From Minisyncoccota bacterium (lineage in GTDB: Bacteria > Patescibacteriota > Minisyncoccia > Phycocordibacterales > UBA9973), in NCBI GenBank assembly GCA_035403785.1, contig DAONFW010000001.1, forward strand, positions 21,595-85,594: DNA of 64,000 bases, given 5' to 3'. Made by a program: the position numbers and the translations under genes. Numbering within the stretch: position 1 is the first letter of the stretch; every line of letters begins with the position of its first letter. The notes beneath the pieces were generated by a model. It was not told where the DNA came from and ran no database searches. It saw only the letters and a program-made list of their open reading frames with translations. This document shows positions 2,434 to 47,105 of this stretch, one piece after another.

Positions 2434-4008
2434 ATGTCATTAGTAACAATACACGAAGCATCAAAATGGGCGACGGACTATCTTGAAAAAGAGGTATCGC
2501 CAACAAATATTTCTTACCTTGTTCAATATGGTAAGGTTAAGAAACTTGGAGAAAATGGGTCAACCCTTGTTGATTTGAATGATTTGAAAAAGTATTACGA
2601 ATCATGGAAAGGTAAACGAGAGATTGATTGGAAAAAACAACTTGGTGATGATTTAAACTGGGCGTTGTCTTTTGATAATCTCAGGGAAAAAGATACGACG
2701 AAGCATGTTCATAGATTACATCCATACAAAGGAAAATATATTCCGCAACTTGTTGAATATTTTATTGATTCCCACATTGATGATTTTAAAAAAGAAGTTT
2801 ATTTTAAAACCGGTGATATAGTCCTCGATCCTTTTCTGGGTTCAGGAACAACAATTATTCAATCACTAGAAATGGGTATCCATTCCGTGGGTATTGATGT
2901 GTCTGAGTTTAATTGCATGATTGCGAGTTGCAAGGCAACAAACTATGATCACGACTATTTGCAGAAAGCAATTAAAAAAATGCTCTCCGCAATAGATACT
3001 TTTGAGCATGATAATAGAATCCAAGAATTTGAAACAGAGTTGTTGGCAGAATTGGCAAAGTTTAATAACAAACATTTTCCCGGCTCAGATTTCAAATATA
3101 AAATAAATCAGGGAAATTTTGATGAAAAAAAGTTTTCTTCAGAAAAAGAAAGGGAGTTTTTGCCTACATATCAGAAATTACTCAAAAAATATTCAATAAA
3201 ACTGAAACAAGACAAAACTGAGTCATTTTTAGATACTTGGTTTATGGATAATGTGAGAAAAGAAATTGATCATGTTTTTAACACTATAAAACAAGAGAAG
3301 GATACAAAAACAAAAAAGATTCTCGCTCTAATTTTGAGCCGAACAATTAGATCGTGTCGAGCTACAACACACAGCGATCTTGCTACCCTAAAAGAACCTC
3401 AACTAACAACATATTATTGCTATAAGCACAAAAAGATTTGCAAACCGTTGTTTTCTATAAAAACAATGCTTAATCGTTACGCTTACGATACTGTTTCAAG
3501 GATCAAGGAATTTGAAAGGTTGCGAAAACCAGTTCATTATTCTGCTATTGCTGGTGATTCAAGAGTTGTGGATATTTTTGAAAAAGTTGAAAAGCAAAAC
3601 CCAGAGTTCGCAAAAATTCTTAAAAAACAAAAAATTTCAGGTATTTTCTGCTCGCCTCCATATGTTGGACAGATTGATTATCACGAACAACACGCCTACG
3701 CCTATGACTTGTTAGGATTTAAGAGAAAAGATGATCTAGAAATTGGCCCACTTTACAAAGGACAAGGACAAGAGGCACGCAGATCATACGCACAAGGAAT
3801 AGCCGATGTGCTAAATAACTGTAAGAAATATCTAAAAGATGATTACGATATTTTCCTTGTGGCAAACGATAAATATAATCTTTATCCAGAAATTGCTGAA
3901 AAATCTGGAATGAAGATTGTTAATCAATTTAAAAGACCTGTTTTGAATCGAACAGAACGGGACAGGAATCCATATTCCGAAATAATTTTTCATTTTAAAT
4001 CAATATAA
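2434..4008 (+). CDS. Type II DNA methyltransferase, amino-MTase (N6-adenine or N4-cytosine), alpha-class motif order
   Basis: Motif I DPFLGSGTT at about aa 135. Motif IV SPPY (IFCSPPYVGQIDY) at about aa 410, with a long intervening target-recognition region. Confidence 0.75.
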   Translation: MSLVTIHEASKWATDYLEKEVSPTNISYLVQYGKVKKLGENGSTLVDLNDLKKYYESWKGKREIDWKKQLGDDLNWALSFDNLREKDTTKHVHRLHPYKGKYIPQLVEYFIDSHIDDFKKEVYFKTGDIVLDPFLGSGTTIIQSLEMGIHSVGIDVSEFNCMIASCKATNYDHDYLQKAIKKMLSAIDTFEHDNRIQEFETELLAELAKFNNKHFPGSDFKYKINQGNFDEKKFSSEKEREFLPTYQKLLKKYSIKLKQDKTESFLDTWFMDNVRKEIDHVFNTIKQEKDTKTKKILALILSRTIRSCRATTHSDLATLKEPQLTTYYCYKHKKICKPLFSIKTMLNRYAYDTVSRIKEFERLRKPVHYSAIAGDSRVVDIFEKVEKQNPEFAKILKKQKISGIFCSPPYVGQIDYHEQHAYAYDLLGFKRKDDLEIGPLYKGQGQEARRSYAQGIADVLNNCKKYLKDDYDIFLVANDKYNLYPEIAEKSGMKIVNQFKRPVLNRTERDRNPYSEIIFHFKSI

Positions 4009-4012
4009 TTTT

Positions 4013-4795
4013 ATGGCACTATCAAAAGAACAAGTTAAAAATGTCGAGGATGTACTAAAAGCAAGTCTCAGAAACAAATTCCAAAATTACAAACCGGAAC
4101 CGGCTTCGATGCCATTCCATACTCGTCTTTTGGGTAAGGATAGATTGGCACTTTATTCATTTATCCATTCTCTCAATACTAATTTTGGAACAAGTATTTT
4201 TGAACCGGTCGGCTTAGCTTTGGCGCAAAAGAATTTCAAAATGGCTACATGCCAAGCTACTGCCGGAGATCGTATAAGCACCGGCGCACAAGCAGAAATA
4301 CAAAAAATTATTGATGGACTAACGACGGCAACATCATCACCAAACAAAAAAGAGGAAATTGAACGAATAAGAAAAGTTTGTCAGTCTGGTGAGATGATAA
4401 AAGCAAAACCTACCAAAGTAGATTTAATGTTTGAATCAAAAGACGGCGGTTATTATTTATTTGATATAAAAACAGCAAAACCTAATGCTGGAGGATTTAA
4501 GGAATTTAAACGAACACTACTTGAATGGGTCGCTGTGACTTTGGCGAACAATCCAAAAGCCGATATAAACACATTTATCGCAATTCCATATAATCCTTAC
4601 GAACCAGAGCCTTACACACGATGGACAATGCGTGGAATGCTTGATTTGGATAATGAGCTTAAAGTAGCTGATGAATTTTGGGATTTTCTTGGTGGTAAAG
4701 GCACATACAAAGATTTACTAGATTGTTTTGAACGAGTTGGAATTGAACTTCGTGGCGAAATAGATGACTACTTTAAGCGCTTCAATAAAAAATAA
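4013..4795 (+). CDS. Putative cognate type II restriction endonuclease
   Basis: The start lies 4 bp after the MTase stop on the same strand. There is a possible D..D-x-K catalytic signature (KDGGYYLFDIK). No other homology is recognisable by eye. Confidence 0.45.
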   Translation: MALSKEQVKNVEDVLKASLRNKFQNYKPEPASMPFHTRLLGKDRLALYSFIHSLNTNFGTSIFEPVGLALAQKNFKMATCQATAGDRISTGAQAEIQKIIDGLTTATSSPNKKEEIERIRKVCQSGEMIKAKPTKVDLMFESKDGGYYLFDIKTAKPNAGGFKEFKRTLLEWVAVTLANNPKADINTFIAIPYNPYEPEPYTRWTMRGMLDLDNELKVADEFWDFLGGKGTYKDLLDCFERVGIELRGEIDDYFKRFNKK

Positions 4796-4995
4796 GCGTC
4801 GGAACCAAAACCAAAAATTTTCCTTTCCATTTTTTGCCGGCTCCCCCCACACCCCCCGCCGAAAGAGGAATTGTAAGGAAAATTTTGGTTTTGGGATCGC
4901 GACCGAAGGGAGCGTGCGAGGCGCAAGTATCATTCGTCAAAATCCTGCGGATTTTGTCCGAAATACATTCGAACTTCGTCCAATACACACCGCCA
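4792..4995. repeat. Inverted repeat X1, right copy, ending in the CCGCCA core at 4990..4995
   Basis: 4792..4850 matches the reverse complement of 1..58. The distal 50 bp (ggattttgtccgaaatacattcgaacttcgtccaatacacaccgcca) is conserved with the end of X2 at 36857..36906. Confidence 0.65.
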
Positions 4996-5109
4996 AAATT
5001 GGAAATCGGAATCGGAAGCCGAAATGGGGTCGGCGCGAAGCGCCGACACAAACGCATTCCCGCCAAAAATTCCCGAATCCAAAAGGTTTTTCCACGCTCC
5101 GCGTGGCTC
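4990..5109. repeat. Inverted repeat Y1, copy A (120 bp, GC-rich, with internal hairpins)
   Basis: Appears to be a perfect reverse-complement match to 6512..6631 when read by eye in chunks. It contains the hairpins gtcggcgc-gaa-gcgccgac and ccacgc-tcc-gcgtgg. Confidence 0.85.
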
Positions 5110-5131
5110 TCTCGTTTGCCAATACAATTTT

Positions 5132-6730
5132 ATGAATAATCAAACCAAAAAGTTTTTCATATATACTCGCAAGTCTACGGATGACAAAGACAGACAAGTC
5201 CGCAGTATTGCAGACCAACTTTCTGAATTGAAAGAATTAGCAAGGAAAGAAGATTTAGATGTTGTTGATGTCTTTGTCGAAAAGCAGACCGCCAAAATAC
5301 CAGGTCGCCCAGTGTTTGGTGAGATGTTGGAGCGAATGGAGAAAGGCGAAGCCACTGGTATTTTGGCGTGGCATCCCGATAGACTTGCTCGCAACTCGAT
5401 AGACGGAGGAAAAGTCATCTACCTCGTTGACACCGGTGTCATTTCAGAAATGAAATTCCCAACTTTTTGGTTTGATCCGACACCGCAAGGCAAGTTTATG
5501 CTTTCAATCGCTTTTTCGCAGTCCAAGTATTATGTGGACAATTTGAGCGAAAATATTAAGCGTGGACATAGAAACAAAGTGAAAGAAGGAATATGGCCTC
5601 AAATGTCGCCGCTAGGATATATAAACGAGGGCGGGAAAATTGTCGTTGATGAAAATATCGCACCTTTAATCAAGAAAACATTTGAGGCATATTCGTCTGG
5701 GTCTTTCACTTTGCGACAACTTCGCGACAAATTTAATGAACTTGGATTGAAGCGAAAAAGCGGAAAGGAACTTGCGGTGTCGAATTATCAAAAACTTTTG
5801 AAAAACCCAATTTACACAGGTTTGATGTTGTATAACGGCGAGATACACGAAGGTAAGCACGAACCGATTATTACAAAGAAACTTTTTGATTCCGTTCAAG
5901 AAGTGATGATGAGAAAATCTAAACCGAAGTCGCGAGGATTGAAACCATTTTTGTACAGAGGATTTTTCCGTTGCGGAGAATGTAGTTGCTTCATTACCAC
6001 CGAAACACAGAAGGGTCATAATTATTTGCGATGTACCAAACGGAAAAATCCTTGTTCACAAAAATATACTCGTGAGGAAACCATCACTTCTGAAATTCAA
6101 AAGGAAATCAAAAAAGTTTCTTTGCCAGACGATTGGGCTTCTTGGATGTTAGTGGAAAATAGAAAAGATATATTGAGTGAAGCCCAATTGTCTACGCTTT
6201 TTGCAGACAACACAAAAGCCGATATTTCTCTTTTGGATTCTAAAATTGAGAAGCTGATGAACGCATATTTAGAGAACGCACTTTCGCTAGACGAGTATCG
6301 AGATATGAAAAACAAACTTGTGAACGAAAAACAGCTTCTCAAAGAGAAATTATCGGCTTTTGAGAAAAAAGCGAATAATCGGTTCGAACTTACCGAAAAG
6401 TTTTTGAAATACAATGTGGAATTGGCAAACGAGTGTACAAATGAAGAAAAACTTCATTTGTACAAAAAAGTCGGTTCGAACTTTCAAATTAAGGATCGAA
6501 CCGTACTTTTTGAGCCACGCGGAGCGTGGAAAAACCTTTTGGATTCGGGAATTTTTGGCGGGAATGCGTTTGTGTCGGCGCTTCGCGCCGACCCCATTTC
6601 GGCTTCCGATTCCGATTTCCAATTTTGGCGGAGGCGGAGGGATTCGAACCCTCGATGCCCTTTCAGACATACAGACTTTCCAGGTCTGCGCACTAGACCG
6701 CTATGCGACGCCTCCAAAATTTCTTATTAA
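5132..6730 (+). CDS. Large serine recombinase (resolvase/invertase catalytic domain, recombinase domain and zinc ribbon)
   Basis: The ATG at 5132 aligns with the paralog start MDNINLQTKKIFLYARKSTDE. Catalytic Ser is in YTRKSTDD. The Cys cluster FRCGECSCFITT...LRCTKRKNPC is present. Homology to the paralog ends near aa 465 (GSNFQIKDRTVLFEP). The last ~70 codons are encoded by repeat Y1 copy B and antisense tRNA-Ser, so the functional end is probably earlier than the ORF stop. Confidence 0.85.
   Translation: MNNQTKKFFIYTRKSTDDKDRQVRSIADQLSELKELARKEDLDVVDVFVEKQTAKIPGRPVFGEMLERMEKGEATGILAWHPDRLARNSIDGGKVIYLVDTGVISEMKFPTFWFDPTPQGKFMLSIAFSQSKYYVDNLSENIKRGHRNKVKEGIWPQMSPLGYINEGGKIVVDENIAPLIKKTFEAYSSGSFTLRQLRDKFNELGLKRKSGKELAVSNYQKLLKNPIYTGLMLYNGEIHEGKHEPIITKKLFDSVQEVMMRKSKPKSRGLKPFLYRGFFRCGECSCFITTETQKGHNYLRCTKRKNPCSQKYTREETITSEIQKEIKKVSLPDDWASWMLVENRKDILSEAQLSTLFADNTKADISLLDSKIEKLMNAYLENALSLDEYRDMKNKLVNEKQLLKEKLSAFEKKANNRFELTEKFLKYNVELANECTNEEKLHLYKKVGSNFQIKDRTVLFEPRGAWKNLLDSGIFGGNAFVSALRADPISASDSDFQFWRRRRDSNPRCPFRHTDFPGLRTRPLCDASKISY
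6512..6631. repeat. Inverted repeat Y1, copy B, overlapping the recombinase 3' end and abutting the tRNA-Ser 3' end
   Basis: Reverse complement of 4990..5109. Its last 6 nt (tggcgg) are the terminal CCGCCA of the tRNA. Confidence 0.85.
6626..6715 (-). tRNA. tRNA-Ser (anticodon GGA), class II with a long variable arm
   Basis: Reverse complement reads GGAGGCG-TC-GCAT...; anticodon stem-loop CAGAC-CTGGAAA-GTCTG; T arm GAGGGTTCGAATCCCTC; acceptor CGCCTCC-G-CCA. Length 90 nt. Confidence 0.85.
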
Positions 6731-34493: not shown

Positions 34494-35477
34494 TTAACTA
34501 TTTTTTAAATCACTCATTATTTTTTTTGCCAAGTGATGAGCAAAATTTACTGCAACAGCATTTCCAATCATTTTATAACCGTCAGCAATATCACGATATT
34601 TGAAAATAAAATCATCGGGAAATGTTTGTATTCTTGCACACTCACGAACAGACAAACGGCGGTATAATTGTTCTTTTCCGGGAACAAAAATTCTTTTATT
34701 TTGTTCAATAAATTTCATTTTTGGTGCTTGTGGGTGAATTGGTGCGTGGCGACCACCAGCTTGAATTGTGAAAGAAGGCTCGTCCCAAGAACGGACACGA
34801 TTTCGCGACATATAAATCGTTGAGAAACCGCCATTCATATATTCATGGTTTGGAATTTTCAACTCGTCGCCGTTTGTCTTGTTTTTATCTTTAGCTGGTT
34901 TTGCTAAACGCAAATCAAAAATAGCGTCTTTCAAAACAGGTTTATATTTTTGTGGTTCTGGAAATTCAAATTTCTTTTTTAATTTTTTATGATAACCAAC
35001 AATAATAACGCGAAGCCTATCCTCTGGAACATCATAATCATTTGCGTTTAGAAGTTTGCAAGAAATTACATATCCGGCATTTTCAAATTCCTTGATTATA
35101 TTTGAAAATGCCTCTTTGTGTTTTGGGTGTAAAATCCCCGATACATTTTCTGCAAGAAAAAATTTTGGCTGTTTTTCTTTCAATAAACGAATGTAGTCAT
35201 AAAATAATTGACCTCGCTTGTCGTTTATTCCACGCCCAGCACCAGCCTCACTCCAACTTTGGCAAGGAGGTCCGCCAATAATTCCGTCAACATCGGGGAT
35301 TTCAGACGCTGGAACATCAACAATACTTCTCTTGTCTAATTTTGTTTTTGGAAAATTATACTCAAATGTTTCCCAAATTGTCGGGTCGTATTCATTCGCC
35401 CAAACGACATGAAAACCAGCTCTTTCAAAGCCTAAATCTAACCCACCCGCACCTGTAAATAAAGAAGCTAATTTCAT
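34494..35477 (-). CDS. dcm: DNA (cytosine-5)-methyltransferase
   Basis: Motif I LFTGAGGLDLGF. Motif IV GGPPCQSWS. Motif VI ENV. Motif X GNAVAVN. Confidence 0.9.
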   Translation of the reverse strand: MKLASLFTGAGGLDLGFERAGFHVVWANEYDPTIWETFEYNFPKTKLDKRSIVDVPASEIPDVDGIIGGPPCQSWSEAGAGRGINDKRGQLFYDYIRLLKEKQPKFFLAENVSGILHPKHKEAFSNIIKEFENAGYVISCKLLNANDYDVPEDRLRVIIVGYHKKLKKKFEFPEPQKYKPVLKDAIFDLRLAKPAKDKNKTNGDELKIPNHEYMNGGFSTIYMSRNRVRSWDEPSFTIQAGGRHAPIHPQAPKMKFIEQNKRIFVPGKEQLYRRLSVRECARIQTFPDDFIFKYRDIADGYKMIGNAVAVNFAHHLAKKIMSDLKNS

Positions 35478-35478
35478 A

Positions 35479-36327
35479 TTATTTTCTAAAACTCAATAAT
35501 TTCGCCTCAAGCAATTTTGCTGGATTATTTGGCGATTTTATTTTTATATCTTTAATTAAAAAGTTATCACTAACTAAACTTTCAAGATGTTTTCTGTCTT
35601 TTTCTGGAAAAGACAAATATTTTTCTTTCAGCAAAATTGCATTAACAAAAAATTCAGAATTTTGCTCTGCCGGAACAACATAATCAAAAACTTTTATAGG
35701 ATTTTCAATTCCCCACATTCCACGAATACGCAAATATGTTATTCCAAGAGGATCAACGCGATTTACTCTGCCGAGTTCGTTTGTTTCCGAAAATTCAACA
35801 TCTTGTAATTCATTAACACCTTTTGAAATTTTATCTCTTATTCTTTCGTAAACTTCTTTATTTGCGGAATAACAATTACCATAAACAAGCCACAAGGCTT
35901 TTAGCTTGTCATCTTTTGAAACTCCAACAACATAAACTAAATCTTTTTCCCGCCAATCCTCACAATTTTTGCAAGCAGTGGTTATCATCGGACTATCAGA
36001 AAATAGTTTGTCTTTAGGATACGAACTATTAAGTGCAATTCCCGAACGCAAACTTTCAATTTTCTTAACTTCTATCGCATCACCTTGCTTGATAATAATG
36101 TCTGGCGGATTATTTTGATTTCCAATATAAGAAAAATATTTGCTGTAAATTTCATTTTTCTTTTCAAGATTATTTTCATTTAGGGAATTGCAAAATAAGT
36201 CTTTGATATAAAATTCTAAAGCGTCGCCCATACTGTTTGCTCGGTTGGCAGCACGATAATGAGAAACCAAATTTGTAATTGGATTTTTGACTAAATTTGA
36301 TATTGCGATAAGTAAATTTGTTTCCAT
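35479..36327 (-). CDS. Type II restriction endonuclease (PD-(D/E)xK fold), cognate of the m5C MTase
   Basis: PPDIIIKQGDAIEVKK fits PD-x10-ExK. It is 1 bp upstream of dcm on the same strand. Confidence 0.55.
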   Translation of the reverse strand: METNLLIAISNLVKNPITNLVSHYRAANRANSMGDALEFYIKDLFCNSLNENNLEKKNEIYSKYFSYIGNQNNPPDIIIKQGDAIEVKKIESLRSGIALNSSYPKDKLFSDSPMITTACKNCEDWREKDLVYVVGVSKDDKLKALWLVYGNCYSANKEVYERIRDKISKGVNELQDVEFSETNELGRVNRVDPLGITYLRIRGMWGIENPIKVFDYVVPAEQNSEFFVNAILLKEKYLSFPEKDRKHLESLVSDNFLIKDIKIKSPNNPAKLLEAKLLSFRK

Positions 36328-36331
36328 AGTT

Positions 36332-36526
36332 TTATTTTATTAAATCCTCAATCGGCACATTAAGTGCCTTCGCGATTTTTTTAATTGTATCAATAGTTGG
36401 ATTTTGTTGTTTGCCTGCCTCGATATTGATTATCGTATTATTGGAAACATCAGCAAGACGGGCTAGTTTTTCTTGCGACAAACCCATTTTTTCTCTTATT
36501 CGTTTGATTTTGCTTGACTCTACCAT
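36332..36526 (-). CDS. Controller (C) protein, XRE-family HTH
   Basis: 64-aa HTH (LSQEKLARLADVSNNTIINIEAGK). It lies immediately upstream of the REase gene. Confidence 0.7.
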   Translation of the reverse strand: MVESSKIKRIREKMGLSQEKLARLADVSNNTIINIEAGKQQNPTIDTIKKIAKALNVPIEDLIK

Positions 36527-36556
36527 ATTAAAATAGTAATATTAAATTGTGGTATA

Positions 36557-36600
36557 ATAATTATATGCTTCAACAAAATAACCACAATATAATATTACCA
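36557..36600 (-). promoter_or_regulatory. Candidate C-box operator palindrome (TTGTGGT ... ACCACAA) upstream of the C-protein gene
   Basis: Seen in sequence: attgtggtataataattatatgcttcaacaaaataaccacaat. Confidence 0.4.
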
Positions 36601-36711
36601 AAATATTTCGACTTCGTAAAGAAAAAAGGGAGTTCCTTAGCGTTGCCCGCGAATGGGTTGGGTGGGTCAAGGGCAACATCTCTTTTGGTGGCGCATTTTG
36701 CTTTGCAAAAT

Positions 36712-36906
36712 ACGAAATTCGGAAGCGAAAAAGGAAAGGTTCAAAAACCCGCCCGCATTCCTCCCCAGACCCCTCCTGCGGGCGGGAAGAAAGCCGAGGC
36801 GGGGCAATTCCATTCCCCCAGAAAAATAGTTTGCCCCGCCGAGTCCAAATTAGTTTTCAGGATTTTCGTCAAAAAACGTTCGAACTTCGTCCAAAAAACA
36901 CCGCCA
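36712..36906. repeat. Inverted repeat X2, right copy, ending in the CCGCCA core (36901..36906)
   Basis: Reverse complement of 34268..34462. Confidence 0.85.
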
Positions 36907-37034
36907 AGTTTTACATTCAGCGAAATTGAAAGATGTTGCCTCGGCGCAAAGCGCCTCGGCATGGTATTTTTCCGCAATTTTGAAGGCATTTTTGAAATCC
37001 AAAACCAAAGTGCGGTCGGCAATGCGGAAGTTCG
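36901..37034. repeat. Inverted repeat Y2, copy A (about 133 bp)
   Basis: Perfect reverse complement of 38518..38650 read by eye. It contains the ggcgc-aaa-gcgcc hairpin. Confidence 0.85.
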
Positions 37035-37148
37035 CCGTGCAAAGCACGGGCAAAATGAAATTTTGCAAACCAATCTTTTTTCTTTCGCTTTCGGCGAAAG
37101 GTTGAGCGTATTTTTCTTTGATTGCCCAAAAACTAATTTCAAAACAAT

Positions 37149-38702
37149 ATGGACAACATAAATTTACAAACCAAAAAGATTTTTCTCTATGCCCGTAAAT
37201 CCACGGACGAACCCGAAAGGCAGGTTTTGAGTATTGAGGCGCAAATGTTTGAATTGCGGGAATTTGCGAAAAAAGAAGGACTAAATATCGTCCGTGAATT
37301 TGTGGAAAGCAAAACCGCCAAAGAGCCGGGGCGTGAGATTTTTAACGAAATGATCACAAGCATAGAGAAAAATGAAGCAGAGGGAATTTTAGCGTGGCAC
37401 CCCGACCGCCTCGCTCGAAATAGCATAGACGGCGGACGAATAATCTATTTCGTAGATACTGGCAAAATTACCACGCTAAAATTTCCAACTTTTTGGTTTG
37501 ATCCGACACCGCAGGGAAAATTTATGTTGAGTATCGCTTTTGGGCAATCAAAATATTATGTGGATAATCTTTCGGAAAATATAAAGAGGGGTATTCGCCA
37601 GAAATTGCGAAATGGAATATGGCCCGCTTGGGCGCCACTTGGGTATGTGAACGACAAGAACGCCCGCTGTATTGCCGTGGACAAGGAAAAGGCAAAGTAT
37701 ATCAAGCGGGCTTTTGAAATGTACGCGACTGGCGAATACCCCCTCGCTCAAATCCGAAAGATTATCAATTCCTTGGGCTTGGTTGGCAAGAAAGGCAAAA
37801 TGCTTTCCGTCTCAAATTATCAGTATATGCTGAAAAATAAAATCTATTACGGAATGATTGAATATAACGGCGAATTGTATGACGGAAAGCACGAACCGAT
37901 TATCACAAAGAGACTTTTTGATTTATGCCAAGAAGTGATGATGAATAAGTCAAAACCGAAAACACCAAAACTCAAGCCATACATTTTTAGAGGATTTTTC
38001 CGTTGTGGGGAGTGCGGTTGTTTCATTACCACCGAAACGCAAAAAGGTCATAACTATTTGCGATGTACGAAACGGAAAAATCCTTGTTCGCAAAGGTATG
38101 TAAGAGAGGACGCCATCACTTCTCAAATTAAAGAGGAAATCAAAAAAGTTTCTTTGTCTTCCGCTTGGGCAAACGCTTCAATCAATTATTTTGAAAATGA
38201 AAAAATGAAACTTGCCCAAGCGGAAAGCTCTTTCGCCCAAGAAGCGAGAAATGAGCTTGTAGAGATAGAAACAAAACTTGATCGTTTGCTTGATTTACAA
38301 CTGGACGGCAGTTTGTCGCAAGCAGAATATACCGCTAAAAAGCACAAGCTCATTCTCGCCAAAAAGGATTTGGAAGAAAAAATCACTGCTTTTGGGCGAA
38401 AGAGCAATAATCGGTTCGAACTTACCATTGCCTTTCTAAAAGACGCCAACCAAGCCGAAAAATACGCTCAACAAGAAAATCCCGAAAGGATTCGGGATTT
38501 TCTCAAAAAGATTGGTTCGAACTTCCGCATTGCCGACCGCACTTTGGTTTTGGATTTCAAAAATGCCTTCAAAATTGCGGAAAAATACCATGCCGAGGCG
38601 CTTTGCGCCGAGGCAACATCTTTCAATTTCGCTGAATGTAAAACTTGGCGGAGACGGCGGGATTCGAACCCGCGATGGGTTTTGAAGCCCATGCCTCTTT
38701 AG
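37149..38702 (+). CDS. Large serine recombinase (paralog of 5132..6730)
   Basis: YARKSTDEPERQ catalytic motif. Zinc ribbon FRCGECGCFITT...LRCTKRKNPCSQ. The C-terminal tail is encoded by repeat Y2 copy B and then antisense tRNA-Ser, giving WRRRRDSNPR as in the paralog. Confidence 0.85.
   Translation: MDNINLQTKKIFLYARKSTDEPERQVLSIEAQMFELREFAKKEGLNIVREFVESKTAKEPGREIFNEMITSIEKNEAEGILAWHPDRLARNSIDGGRIIYFVDTGKITTLKFPTFWFDPTPQGKFMLSIAFGQSKYYVDNLSENIKRGIRQKLRNGIWPAWAPLGYVNDKNARCIAVDKEKAKYIKRAFEMYATGEYPLAQIRKIINSLGLVGKKGKMLSVSNYQYMLKNKIYYGMIEYNGELYDGKHEPIITKRLFDLCQEVMMNKSKPKTPKLKPYIFRGFFRCGECGCFITTETQKGHNYLRCTKRKNPCSQRYVREDAITSQIKEEIKKVSLSSAWANASINYFENEKMKLAQAESSFAQEARNELVEIETKLDRLLDLQLDGSLSQAEYTAKKHKLILAKKDLEEKITAFGRKSNNRFELTIAFLKDANQAEKYAQQENPERIRDFLKKIGSNFRIADRTLVLDFKNAFKIAEKYHAEALCAEATSFNFAECKTWRRRRDSNPRWVLKPMPL
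38518..38650. repeat. Inverted repeat Y2, copy B, abutting the tRNA-Ser 3' end
   Basis: Reverse complement of 36901..37034. Confidence 0.85.
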
Positions 38703-38737
38703 CAAAGAGGTACGTTAGACCACTCTGACACGTCTCC
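38646..38737 (-). tRNA. tRNA-Ser (anticodon GCU), class II
   Basis: Reverse complement reads GGAGACG...; anticodon loop CCTCT-TTGCTAA-AGAGG; long variable arm; GGTTCGAATCC T-loop; CCA is encoded. Confidence 0.85.
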
Positions 38738-38809
38738 TTGAACTTTACTCTAACATATTTTCATTATTTTTCCATTTATGCTATATTGACTTTATATTTA
38801 AACAAAAAC

Positions 38810-38898
38810 GGAGGCGTGGATGAGTGGTTTAAATCAACGGTTTACTAAACCGTCGTACCCTAACCGGTACCGTGAGTTCGAATCTCACCGCCTCCGCA
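38810..38898 (+). tRNA. Class II (Ser-type) tRNA with apparent anticodon ACU (unusual A34); possible tRNA-Ser variant or pseudo-tRNA
   Basis: Acceptor GGAGGCG/CGCCTCC. D-stem GAT/ATC with GG in the loop. Anticodon arm ACGGT-TTACTAA-ACCGT. Variable arm GTACC-CTAACC-GGTAC. T arm GTGAG-TTCGAAT-CTCAC. The 3' CCA is not fully encoded (GCAG). Confidence 0.6.
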
Positions 38899-43626: not shown

Positions 43627-43702
43627 GTCCGCCCTCTTGGACTCGAACCAAGGACCCCAGAGGTATAAGCTCTGTGCTCTAGCCAGCTGAGCTAAGGGCG
43701 GA
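43627..43702 (-). tRNA. tRNA-Ile (anticodon UAU, or possibly modified)
   Basis: Reverse complement: TCCGCCC acceptor; D arm GCTC-AGCTGGCTA-GAGC; anticodon arm CAGAG-CTTATAC-CTCTG; T arm CTTGG-TTCGAGT-CCAAG. Length 76 nt. Confidence 0.7.
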
Positions 43703-46680: not shown

Positions 46681-46712
46681 GATAATTTTATGAAAGTTAT
46701 TATATCAAATTC

Positions 46713-47105
46713 TGTGGAGATGGGGGAAATCGAATCCCCGTGCAGAAGGTTACTGAAATGAAATCTACATACTTAGTTTGTTTTTTTGTTTAAACCTAAA
46801 AACTAATAAGCAAACAAAATGTTTTTAGATCGATCCTCTTTGTTTCGGAAAAGACCCGAGGCTTGTCTTCCCTATCCCGAAAATATTATGCCCCAAACTT
46901 ATATATCGGAAGTCTATAAGCGAGACACCAGCCCTCTTAAGCGAAAGCTGGAGCAAAAGCGAAGTCCTTCATACCGAAGTATGGAGAAACTGAATCTTTT
47001 ACTTTAGAAGCTAATTTTGCAATTAGTTTTTTGAATAAGTTAACGAGATTATTCAGCTCGGTATGCATCAAGACAAACAGCCAACTGTCTATGCCTTGCA
47101 TCCCC
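46713..47105 (-). ncRNA. ssrA: tmRNA (ssrA) adjacent to smpB
   Basis: The reverse complement begins GGGGATGCAAGGCAT. It ends with a T-arm-like GGGGATTCGATTTCCCC and acceptor CATCTCCA with a G3-U70 pair. An internal reading frame ...MKDFAFAPAFA-TAA resembles Mollicutes-type proteolysis tags. The region is otherwise noncoding. Confidence 0.75.

Follow-up and report, generated by a model that had tools for sequence, protein, structure and literature searches.

The window analysed here, a 64,000-nucleotide stretch of Minisyncoccota DNA, contains a serine tRNA gene with the anticodon ACU, and thus an encoded A34 in a codon box that is split with arginine. The gene is intact, conserved and under structural selection, and its family is widespread in Patescibacteria (CPR) and in phages. 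Our preferred reading, to which we give a probability of about 65%, is that it is a functional, native serine tRNA from an old ACU family inherited within the CPR, serving as an isoacceptor dedicated to AGU with A34 unmodified. The original prediction had put forward a pseudo- or decoy tRNA, a tRNA associated with an element, or a decoding peculiarity of the lineage; of these options the last alone was supported, in the form of a CPR-wide family.

The tRNA-Ser(ACU) gene and its chromosomal setting

The ACU gene and its immediate surroundings comprise the following features.

38810..38897, + strand: tRNA-Ser(ACU) gene, class II, with G73 and without encoded CCA (ARAGORN, Rfam, cloverleaf and family covariation)
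38844..38846, + strand: anticodon A34-C35-U36, in the 7-nt loop UUACUAA at 38842-38848 (sequence and ARAGORN)
38769..38798, + strand: promoter-like site (TTTCCA and TATATT separated by 18 nt), with its end 11 nt upstream of the tRNA gene (consensus match only)
38758-38787: second promoter-like site, overlapping the first (consensus match only)
38646..38737, - strand: tRNA-Ser(GCU), divergent, 72 bp upstream of the ACU gene, with encoded CCA (ARAGORN and Rfam)
37149..38702, + strand: large serine recombinase of island 2 (Pfam Resolvase, Recombinase and Zn_ribbon_recom)

ARAGORN found four tRNAs in the 64 kb. One of them is tRNA-Ser(act) at 38810-38897(+), whose anticodon it places at position 35 of the tRNA (38844-38846 in the window). 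Against the Rfam family RF00005 (gathering threshold 29 bits) the gene scored 57.1 bits (E=1.1e-9) over model positions 1-71 of 71, which equals the score of the tRNA-Ser(GGA) at 6626-6715 and exceeds the 48 bits of the neighbouring tRNA-Ser(GCU). The cloverleaf could be read directly from the sequence. It has a 7-bp acceptor stem (GGAGGCG/CGCCTCC), U8, a 3-bp D stem (GAU/AUC), an anticodon stem ACGGU/ACCGU with the loop U-U-A-C-U-A-A, a variable arm with a 5-bp stem (GUACC/GGUAC; class II begins at 3 bp) and a 6-nt loop, and the T arm GUGAG-UUCGAAU-CUCAC. The discriminator, at 38896, is G73, as in serine tRNAs, versus the A73 of Leu and Tyr tRNAs. These results bear out the predicted canonical class-II tRNA-Ser with a 3-bp D stem and a long variable arm. 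The predicted contrast between its loop, UU-ACU-AA, and the UU-GCU-AA of the neighbouring tRNA was likewise seen, both loops being read from the sequence with ARAGORN in agreement. The 3' trailer is CAG, hence CCA is not encoded, again as predicted.

A single-sequence thermodynamic fold returned the anticodon, variable, T and acceptor helices, and no fold of this tRNA with a standard anticodon was found. Three promoter-like sites were counted versus 1.5 expected, a weak excess of consensus matches only. The 411 bp that span both tRNAs, A34 included, are 100% identical in the JGI assemblies of two other samples (3300009692 and 3300009694, probably sister samples), and because the sequence is identical in three assemblies a one-off read or assembly error at A34 is excluded. 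The gene is thus confirmed as a real, intact serine tRNA gene.

The window is a piece of Patescibacteria chromosome, with genes for ribosomal proteins S8, L6 and L15, IF3, LigA, RecG and FtsH, and it also encodes type IV pilus genes and tmRNA. The latter is full-length at 46712-47105 (-) and scores 122.9 bits in Rfam; it was not listed by ARAGORN. Island 2 (34494-38702) is made up of a C5 methylase, an NgoPII endonuclease and the large serine recombinase. Its insertion point is the 3' end of tRNA-Ser(GCU), facing away from the ACU gene. With its own 3' end the recombinase ORF overlaps the 3' end of tRNA-Ser(GCU) in antisense orientation, and the ACU gene lies 108 bp from the end of this ORF. 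In the related genome L209, homologues of the MarR-side genes found at 30.6-34.2 kb in the window come immediately after the ACU/GCU pair, and at the pair site there is no methylase, endonuclease or recombinase of island 2. In L167 (Paceibacterota) the pair is also kept and is followed by the same DHQS-like gene (82% identity), without island 2. An element-associated tRNA was therefore rejected for this locus, where the island lies beyond the GCU gene and the L209 pair is island-free. The tRNA-Ser(ACU) gene is native to its chromosomal locus and is an ordinary member of its own lineage's tRNA set. A recent duplication of the neighbouring GCU gene was rejected as well; the two local genes share about 64% identity and differ in their anticodon stems.

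Like island 2, a second island in the window (island 1, 2434-6730) combines a restriction-modification pair with a large serine recombinase.

2434-4008: N6/N4 methylase of island 1
4013-4795: TdeIII/HinfI-type endonuclease of island 1
5024-6730: recombinase of island 1, adjoining tRNA-Ser(GGA)

Both islands sit at the 3' end of a tRNA-Ser gene, with the recombinase ORF antisense through the 3' part of the tRNA, and related recombinases adjoin tRNA-Ser(ACU) itself in the CPR genomes L139 and L148. The recombinase genes are flanked by perfect inverted repeats with 100% complementarity, of 120 nt in island 1 (4990-5109 / 6512-6631) and of 134 nt in island 2 (36901-37034 / 38518-38651). The repeat arm on the tRNA side holds the 3' coding end of the recombinase and stops 6 nt into the 3' end of the tRNA (CCGCCA). 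Such a layout suggests either a recombinase cassette that can invert or an ambiguity in the assembly; the sister-sample contigs break near these repeats. In the ENA contig L666 the restriction-modification pair of island 1 is followed by different genes. Two contigs that extend the window were searched for tRNA-Arg and further tRNAs, and neither contains a tRNA. Beyond the right end of the window, just past the ribosomal protein operon, the sister-sample contig L663 has a reverse transcriptase (RVT_1) adjoining a bAvd-family gene (636-2016), the signature of a diversity-generating retroelement.

The ACU family in Patescibacteria and in phages

One genome per bacterial or archaeal species was scanned with the pattern GGTTTACTAAACC followed by a T loop, which yielded at least 120 loci. 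Among the matches listed, ARAGORN called tRNA-Ser(act) in 118 of 120 loci, and Patescibacteria were named in 58 of 80 record titles, with Saccharibacteria, Paceibacteria/Paceibacterota, Nomurabacteria, Microgenomates, Levyibacteriota, Roizmanbacteria and Minisyncoccia among the lineages. The other titles among these matches were MAGs labelled Gammaproteobacteria or Pseudomonadales (10/80), 'bacterium' only (6/80) and other phyla (6/80). Several of the 'Gammaproteobacteria' MAGs have neighbouring proteins that are 65-69% identical to those of labelled CPR loci, and judged by these proteins they are probably mislabelled. At least two of the loci from other phyla (labels Flavobacteriales and Pirellulales) have tRNAs identical or near-identical to phage tRNAs. 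The predicted restriction of A34 to tRNA-Arg(ACG) thus reflects the textbook view correctly, but it fails for Patescibacteria and phages, where tRNA-Ser(ACU) loci are found.

We defined the family by a class-II serine body, the anticodon stem-loop GGUUUACUAAACC and a closer relation to other ACU genes than to the GCU gene of the same genome. The window gene has the ACU-type sequence, with a divergent tRNA-Ser(GCU) immediately upstream. In an alignment of 113 distinct ACU sequences, that of the window included, 98.9% of the cells were paired in the cloverleaf, and compensatory double changes occurred at 18 of 25 pairs (616 cells). None of 500 shuffles reached the observed values, and slid controls were at most 61% paired. 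The helix of the variable arm covaries at all five of its pairs. The invariance of the anticodon loop is not evidence, since the loop was fixed by the search pattern; G73, however, is invariant in 113/113 members although the pattern left it unconstrained. Encoded CCA is absent in 82 of the 113.

Among the matches listed, the nearest neighbour of every ACU gene was another ACU gene (120/120), and mean identity was 76% between ACU genes of different species versus 63% between the ACU and GCU genes of one genome. These two results argue for an old paralogue family and not for a repeated recent G34A mutation. The window gene shares 96.6% identity with its counterpart in Nomurabacteria GW2011_GWE2_34_25; its identity to the closest chromosomal CPR ACU genes is 92-97%, versus 64% to the local GCU gene. 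The family was probably derived from a GCU-type gene, to judge from metagenomic GCU tRNAs that have almost the same D arm and anticodon stem. In a metagenome scan with the ACU backbone and N at position 34, there were 105 tRNAs with G, 15 with A and 1 with T. Exclusive use of this backbone with A34 was thereby rejected; it is common to ordinary GCU tRNAs of other bacteria. The single T34 case (one locus among L250-L369) has a serine-type class-II body with a TCT anticodon (Arg, AGA), and its 5' acceptor half is missing or disrupted; it is probably a 5'-truncated fragment and not a recoding tRNA.

The pairing with tRNA-Ser(GCU) seen in the window recurs elsewhere. Among the matches listed, GCU co-occurs in 68 of 118 related loci and, in 66 of 69 cases, is found upstream of ACU. 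Of the 90 listed loci with at least 2 kb of upstream sequence, 35 have GCU no more than 500 bp upstream, and 32 listed genome loci have a divergent GCU/ACU pair within 400 bp, as in the window.

tRNA-Ser(ACU) also recurs, independently, in phages and viruses. A first scan of IMG/VR with N at position 34 gave 35 ACU and 86 GCU genes, and in an unbiased scan for A or G at this position ACU made up 15 of 77 (~19%) validated phage tRNA-Ser(NCU) genes. Neighbours of the viral ACU genes match PHROG families. The viral tRNAs share the anticodon, the class-II serine body and mostly G73 with those of the CPR, and many have the GGUUUACUAAACC stem-loop. They differ in lying in tRNA arrays, nearly always without GCU, and in their varied anticodon stems with U32 or C32. 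Scans with a free anticodon stem gave at least 117 viral loci with U32 and at least 114 with C32, in which at least 29 and at least 36 distinct anticodon stems, respectively, were present. Among the U32 matches listed, a GCU gene was found in the same locus in 1 of 117 and G73 in 105 of 117. The phage ACU genes sit in their arrays among readers of A/U-ending codons; one array, which has Arg(UCU) close by, runs Thr(UGU)-Gln(UUG)-Asn(GUU)-Ser(ACU)-Ile(UAU)-Glu(UUC)-Lys(UUU). When the window tRNA was compared with GenBank phages by BLAST, the best matches were tRNA-Ser(UGA), uninformative for the anticodon; BLAST with other viral ACU sequences led to cultured phages carrying tRNA-Ser(ACU). Among cultured phages, Rhizobium phage RHph_TM30 (MN988521.1) has an annotated tRNA-Ser(act) and Erwinia phage Hallingskeid carries tRNA-Ser(ACU). 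The tRNA of chlorovirus ATCV-1 is listed in a review table (PMC4810235). In the literature searched, phage and viral tRNA-Ser(ACU) appeared only in GenBank annotation and that one table, and no discussion of it was found.

Enrichment of AGU as the driver of ACU was considered and rejected. AGU has a share of 0.58 in phage loci that carry ACU versus 0.64 in those with GCU only, which is no clear difference in codon usage; since the ACU loci use AGU no more than the GCU loci, a rationale based on AGU demand is weak. The listed phage arrays with Ser(ACU) occasionally contain other A34 tRNAs as well: Leu(AAG) six times, Asp(AUC) three times, Gly(ACC), Thr(AGU) and Phe(AAA) twice each, and Cys(ACA), Tyr(AUA), Ala(AGC) and Ser(AGA) once each. 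Several of them likewise belong to the tRNAs said to be universally absent.

A pseudogene, or a sequencing or assembly error in a GCU gene, would require only a single G-to-A change, and the unencoded CCA might be taken in its favour. This is scarcely credible for a gene that is identical in three assemblies, is 64% identical to the local GCU gene, and has a full Rfam score, intact helices, the identity elements and the covariation of a family whose members mostly lack an encoded CCA themselves; a pseudogene was rejected on these grounds. It is highly improbable that the gene is horizontally acquired cargo of island 2 or of a prophage and stands outside the host's own set. Its position so close to the recombinase ORF and the frequency of tRNA-Ser(ACU) in phages would fit such an origin, but the island reaches only as far as the 3' end of tRNA-Ser(GCU), with the ACU gene beyond, the pair occurs without the island in L209 and L167, and the closest relatives are chromosomal CPR genes. 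A non-decoding role, as a chromosomal attachment site of integrative elements, as a decoy against nucleases that target tRNAs or as the origin of regulatory fragments, we consider very unlikely. The serine-recombinase islands of the window do target tRNA-Ser genes, and in L139 and L148 related recombinases stand beside Ser(ACU) itself. However, neither an attachment site nor a decoy needs compensatory upkeep of five helices across more than 100 species, an invariant G73 or canonical T and D loops, and phages place Ser(ACU) inside arrays of ordinary decoding tRNAs. The predicted pseudo-tRNA was thus contradicted by the Rfam score, the 98.9% paired cells, the compensatory changes and G73 alike.

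Decoding and the state of A34

In the preferred reading, tRNA-Ser(ACU) would be transcribed from its own promoter and CCA would be added post-transcriptionally. For recognition SerRS depends on the long variable arm, the acceptor stem and G73, not on the anticodon; by these same elements it would charge tRNA-Ser(ACU) with serine. The tRNA would then decode AGU through a Watson-Crick A34:U pair. The adjacent tRNA-Ser(GCU), the expected AGC reader, would stay necessary for AGC, and A34, most likely unmodified, would leave the arginine codons AGA and AGG unread. Its expression, its charging with serine, a decoding limited to AGU and an unmodified A34 are what we infer from the gene and its family. 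It is possible that serine alone among the two-codon NNY boxes tolerates A34 because SerRS ignores the anticodon.

As suggested in the original prediction, codon usage was examined. The 62 ORFs of the window (18,674 codons) contain 247 AGU versus 102 AGC codons, and 386 AGA and 47 AGG codons; AGA is the main arginine codon. In an alignment of FtsH with its Thermotoga counterpart, one protein only, 20 AGA codons were compared, of which 13 fell on R, 3 on K and none on S. Recoding of AGA to serine was rejected from this alignment and the arginine codon totals. Since AGA is the commonest arginine codon and encodes arginine, an inosine at position 34 would be harmful through mistranslation by ICU, which agrees with the earlier remark that I34 would misread AGA.

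The window also encodes a tRNA-Ile(UAU) at 43627-43701 (-), and AUA is very frequent (448 codons). Bacterial AUA is normally read by a lysidine-modified CAU tRNA, and a UAU tRNA-Ile is unusual; it was also seen in 6 of the CPR loci listed and in many of the phage arrays with Ser(ACU). The stop codons of the 62 ORFs are TAA (56), TAG (5) and TGA (1); TGA is seemingly not reassigned, as the ORFs are long under the standard bacterial code.

Functional data for the ACU anticodon come only from engineered tRNAs in E. coli. There, an ACU tRNA read AGU at 9.4% and AGG at 0.36%, with AGC and AGA below detection; its A34 was not deaminated, and U was discriminated from C by at least 95:5 (Schmitt 2024, PMC11066159). 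Selective reading of AGU by unmodified ACU is thus seen in the engineered A34 tRNAs (PMC11066159; 10.64898/2026.05.15.725136), but these are artificial, with the M. jannaschii Tyr backbone or as E. coli genes with G34A, whereas tRNA-Ser(ACU) is natural and conserved.

Conversion of A34 to inosine by TadA or another deaminase, with AGU and AGC read and AGA read weakly, is unlikely. In its favour, all well-studied bacterial A34 tRNAs (Arg-ACG and Leu-AAG) carry I34, and the split-box tRNA Phe(AAA) was deaminated once introduced into E. coli (preprint 10.64898/2026.05.15.725136). However, E. coli TadA edits only UACG in an Arg2-like anticodon stem-loop (PMC13170351). The loop of the window tRNA (U33-A34-C35-U36) is UACU and differs at position 36, so that A34 would be left unmodified, as it was in the engineered ACU tRNA. 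Known I34 tRNAs also replace their G34 partner (preprint 10.64898/2026.05.15.725136), the second feature of TadA substrates, whereas tRNA-Ser(GCU) is kept here, 72 bp away; the mistranslation of AGA that ICU would cause counts against inosine as well. The arginine tRNAs point the same way. Among the matches listed, tRNA-Arg(GCG) was present in 9 CPR loci (L163, L166, L170, L172, L180, L192, L204, L239 and L240) and tRNA-Arg(ACG) in 0 of 120 loci. Arg(ACG) accompanies tadA, while Arg(GCG) is otherwise missing in bacteria and its presence is linked to the absence of tadA (PMC8007984). The presence of Arg(GCG) and not Arg(ACG) in the CPR loci listed therefore suggests that CPR may lack TadA, and they may decode CGY without inosine. 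No TadA-like deaminase was found among the 40 ORFs scanned in the 64-kb window, and no paper on CPR tadA in the literature searched.

A further, quite unlikely possibility is that the tRNA reads beyond AGU, for example both AGY codons, through some other, undescribed modification of A34 or through superwobble of an unmodified A34. The unmodified A34 of Mycoplasma tRNA-Thr(AGU) reads several codons of its box, and no paper on tRNA modification in CPR was found in the literature searched. Broad reading in a split box would nevertheless strike arginine codons, the engineered ACU tRNA separates U from C, and GCU is retained. The retention of GCU beside ACU in reduced genomes itself argues that ACU is unable to read AGC.

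With canonical tRNA-Ser(GCU), tRNA-Ser(ACU) shares the class-II body, G73, U33, the U36-A37-A38 context and the codon box, and both are presumed substrates of SerRS. The GCU tRNA has G34 where the ACU gene has A34, and in CPR its anticodon stem is CCUCU/AGAGG versus RCGGU/ACCGY in ACU; the two coexist as separate paralogues. The closest natural analogue is tRNA-Thr(AGU) of Mycoplasma capricolum, a bacterium whose reduced genome is AT-rich; there, too, A34 is encoded in a natural gene, and it is unmodified (Andachi 1987, Inagaki 1995, cited in PMC11066159). Because the Mycoplasma tRNA reads a four-fold box, superwobble does no harm there, whereas the box of Ser(ACU) is split with arginine and only reading of U is tolerable; in Mycoplasma A34 stays adenosine, and the same state would apply to tRNA-Ser(ACU). 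tRNA-Arg(ACG) with TadA and the tRNA-Leu(AAG) of Lactobacillales and Oenococcus resemble Ser(ACU) in having a gene-encoded, lineage-conserved A34. They undergo deamination, read four-fold boxes and take the place of the G34 isoacceptor, whereas Ser(ACU) has no UACG motif, serves a split box and keeps its G34 partner.

Standing in the literature and significance

A review describes A34 as "universally missing" in the Ser/Arg split box (PMC8007984). According to a preprint of May 2026 (10.64898/2026.05.15.725136), which surveyed 4,047 bacteria in GtRNAdb, split-box A34 tRNAs are only sporadic; it speaks of a "deep mystery" in the scarcity of ANN anticodons and does not mention Patescibacteria. 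Both surveys rest on GtRNAdb-type sets, mostly of cultured organisms. No description of a CPR or phage tRNA-Ser(ACU) family was found in the literature searched, outside which most subscription journals lie, and the supplement of a paper on tRNA introns in Patescibacteria gives tRNA counts per amino acid only. The lineage-wide ACU family seems to have gone unrecognised so far.

A conserved A34 serine tRNA in a split box, present in CPR and many phages, contradicts the current general statements. We would give slightly better than even odds to the broader proposition that it is a bona fide decoding tRNA with an unmodified A34 in a split box, selected since the early Patescibacteria radiation and making up about one fifth of the phage AGY-type serine tRNA genes. 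If true, it would be the first natural, lineage-wide exception to the absence of ANN anticodons from split boxes, and a ready natural system for studying why A34 is otherwise excluded.

If confirmed, the family would provide natural material for how an A34 tRNA avoids misreading arginine codons, and a test of whether loss of TadA or mere non-recognition by TadA permits A34. A synthetase blind to the anticodon would be a possible reason for the serine exception. Annotation pipelines and codon-adaptation models should then keep Ser(ACT) calls and not drop them as pseudogenes.
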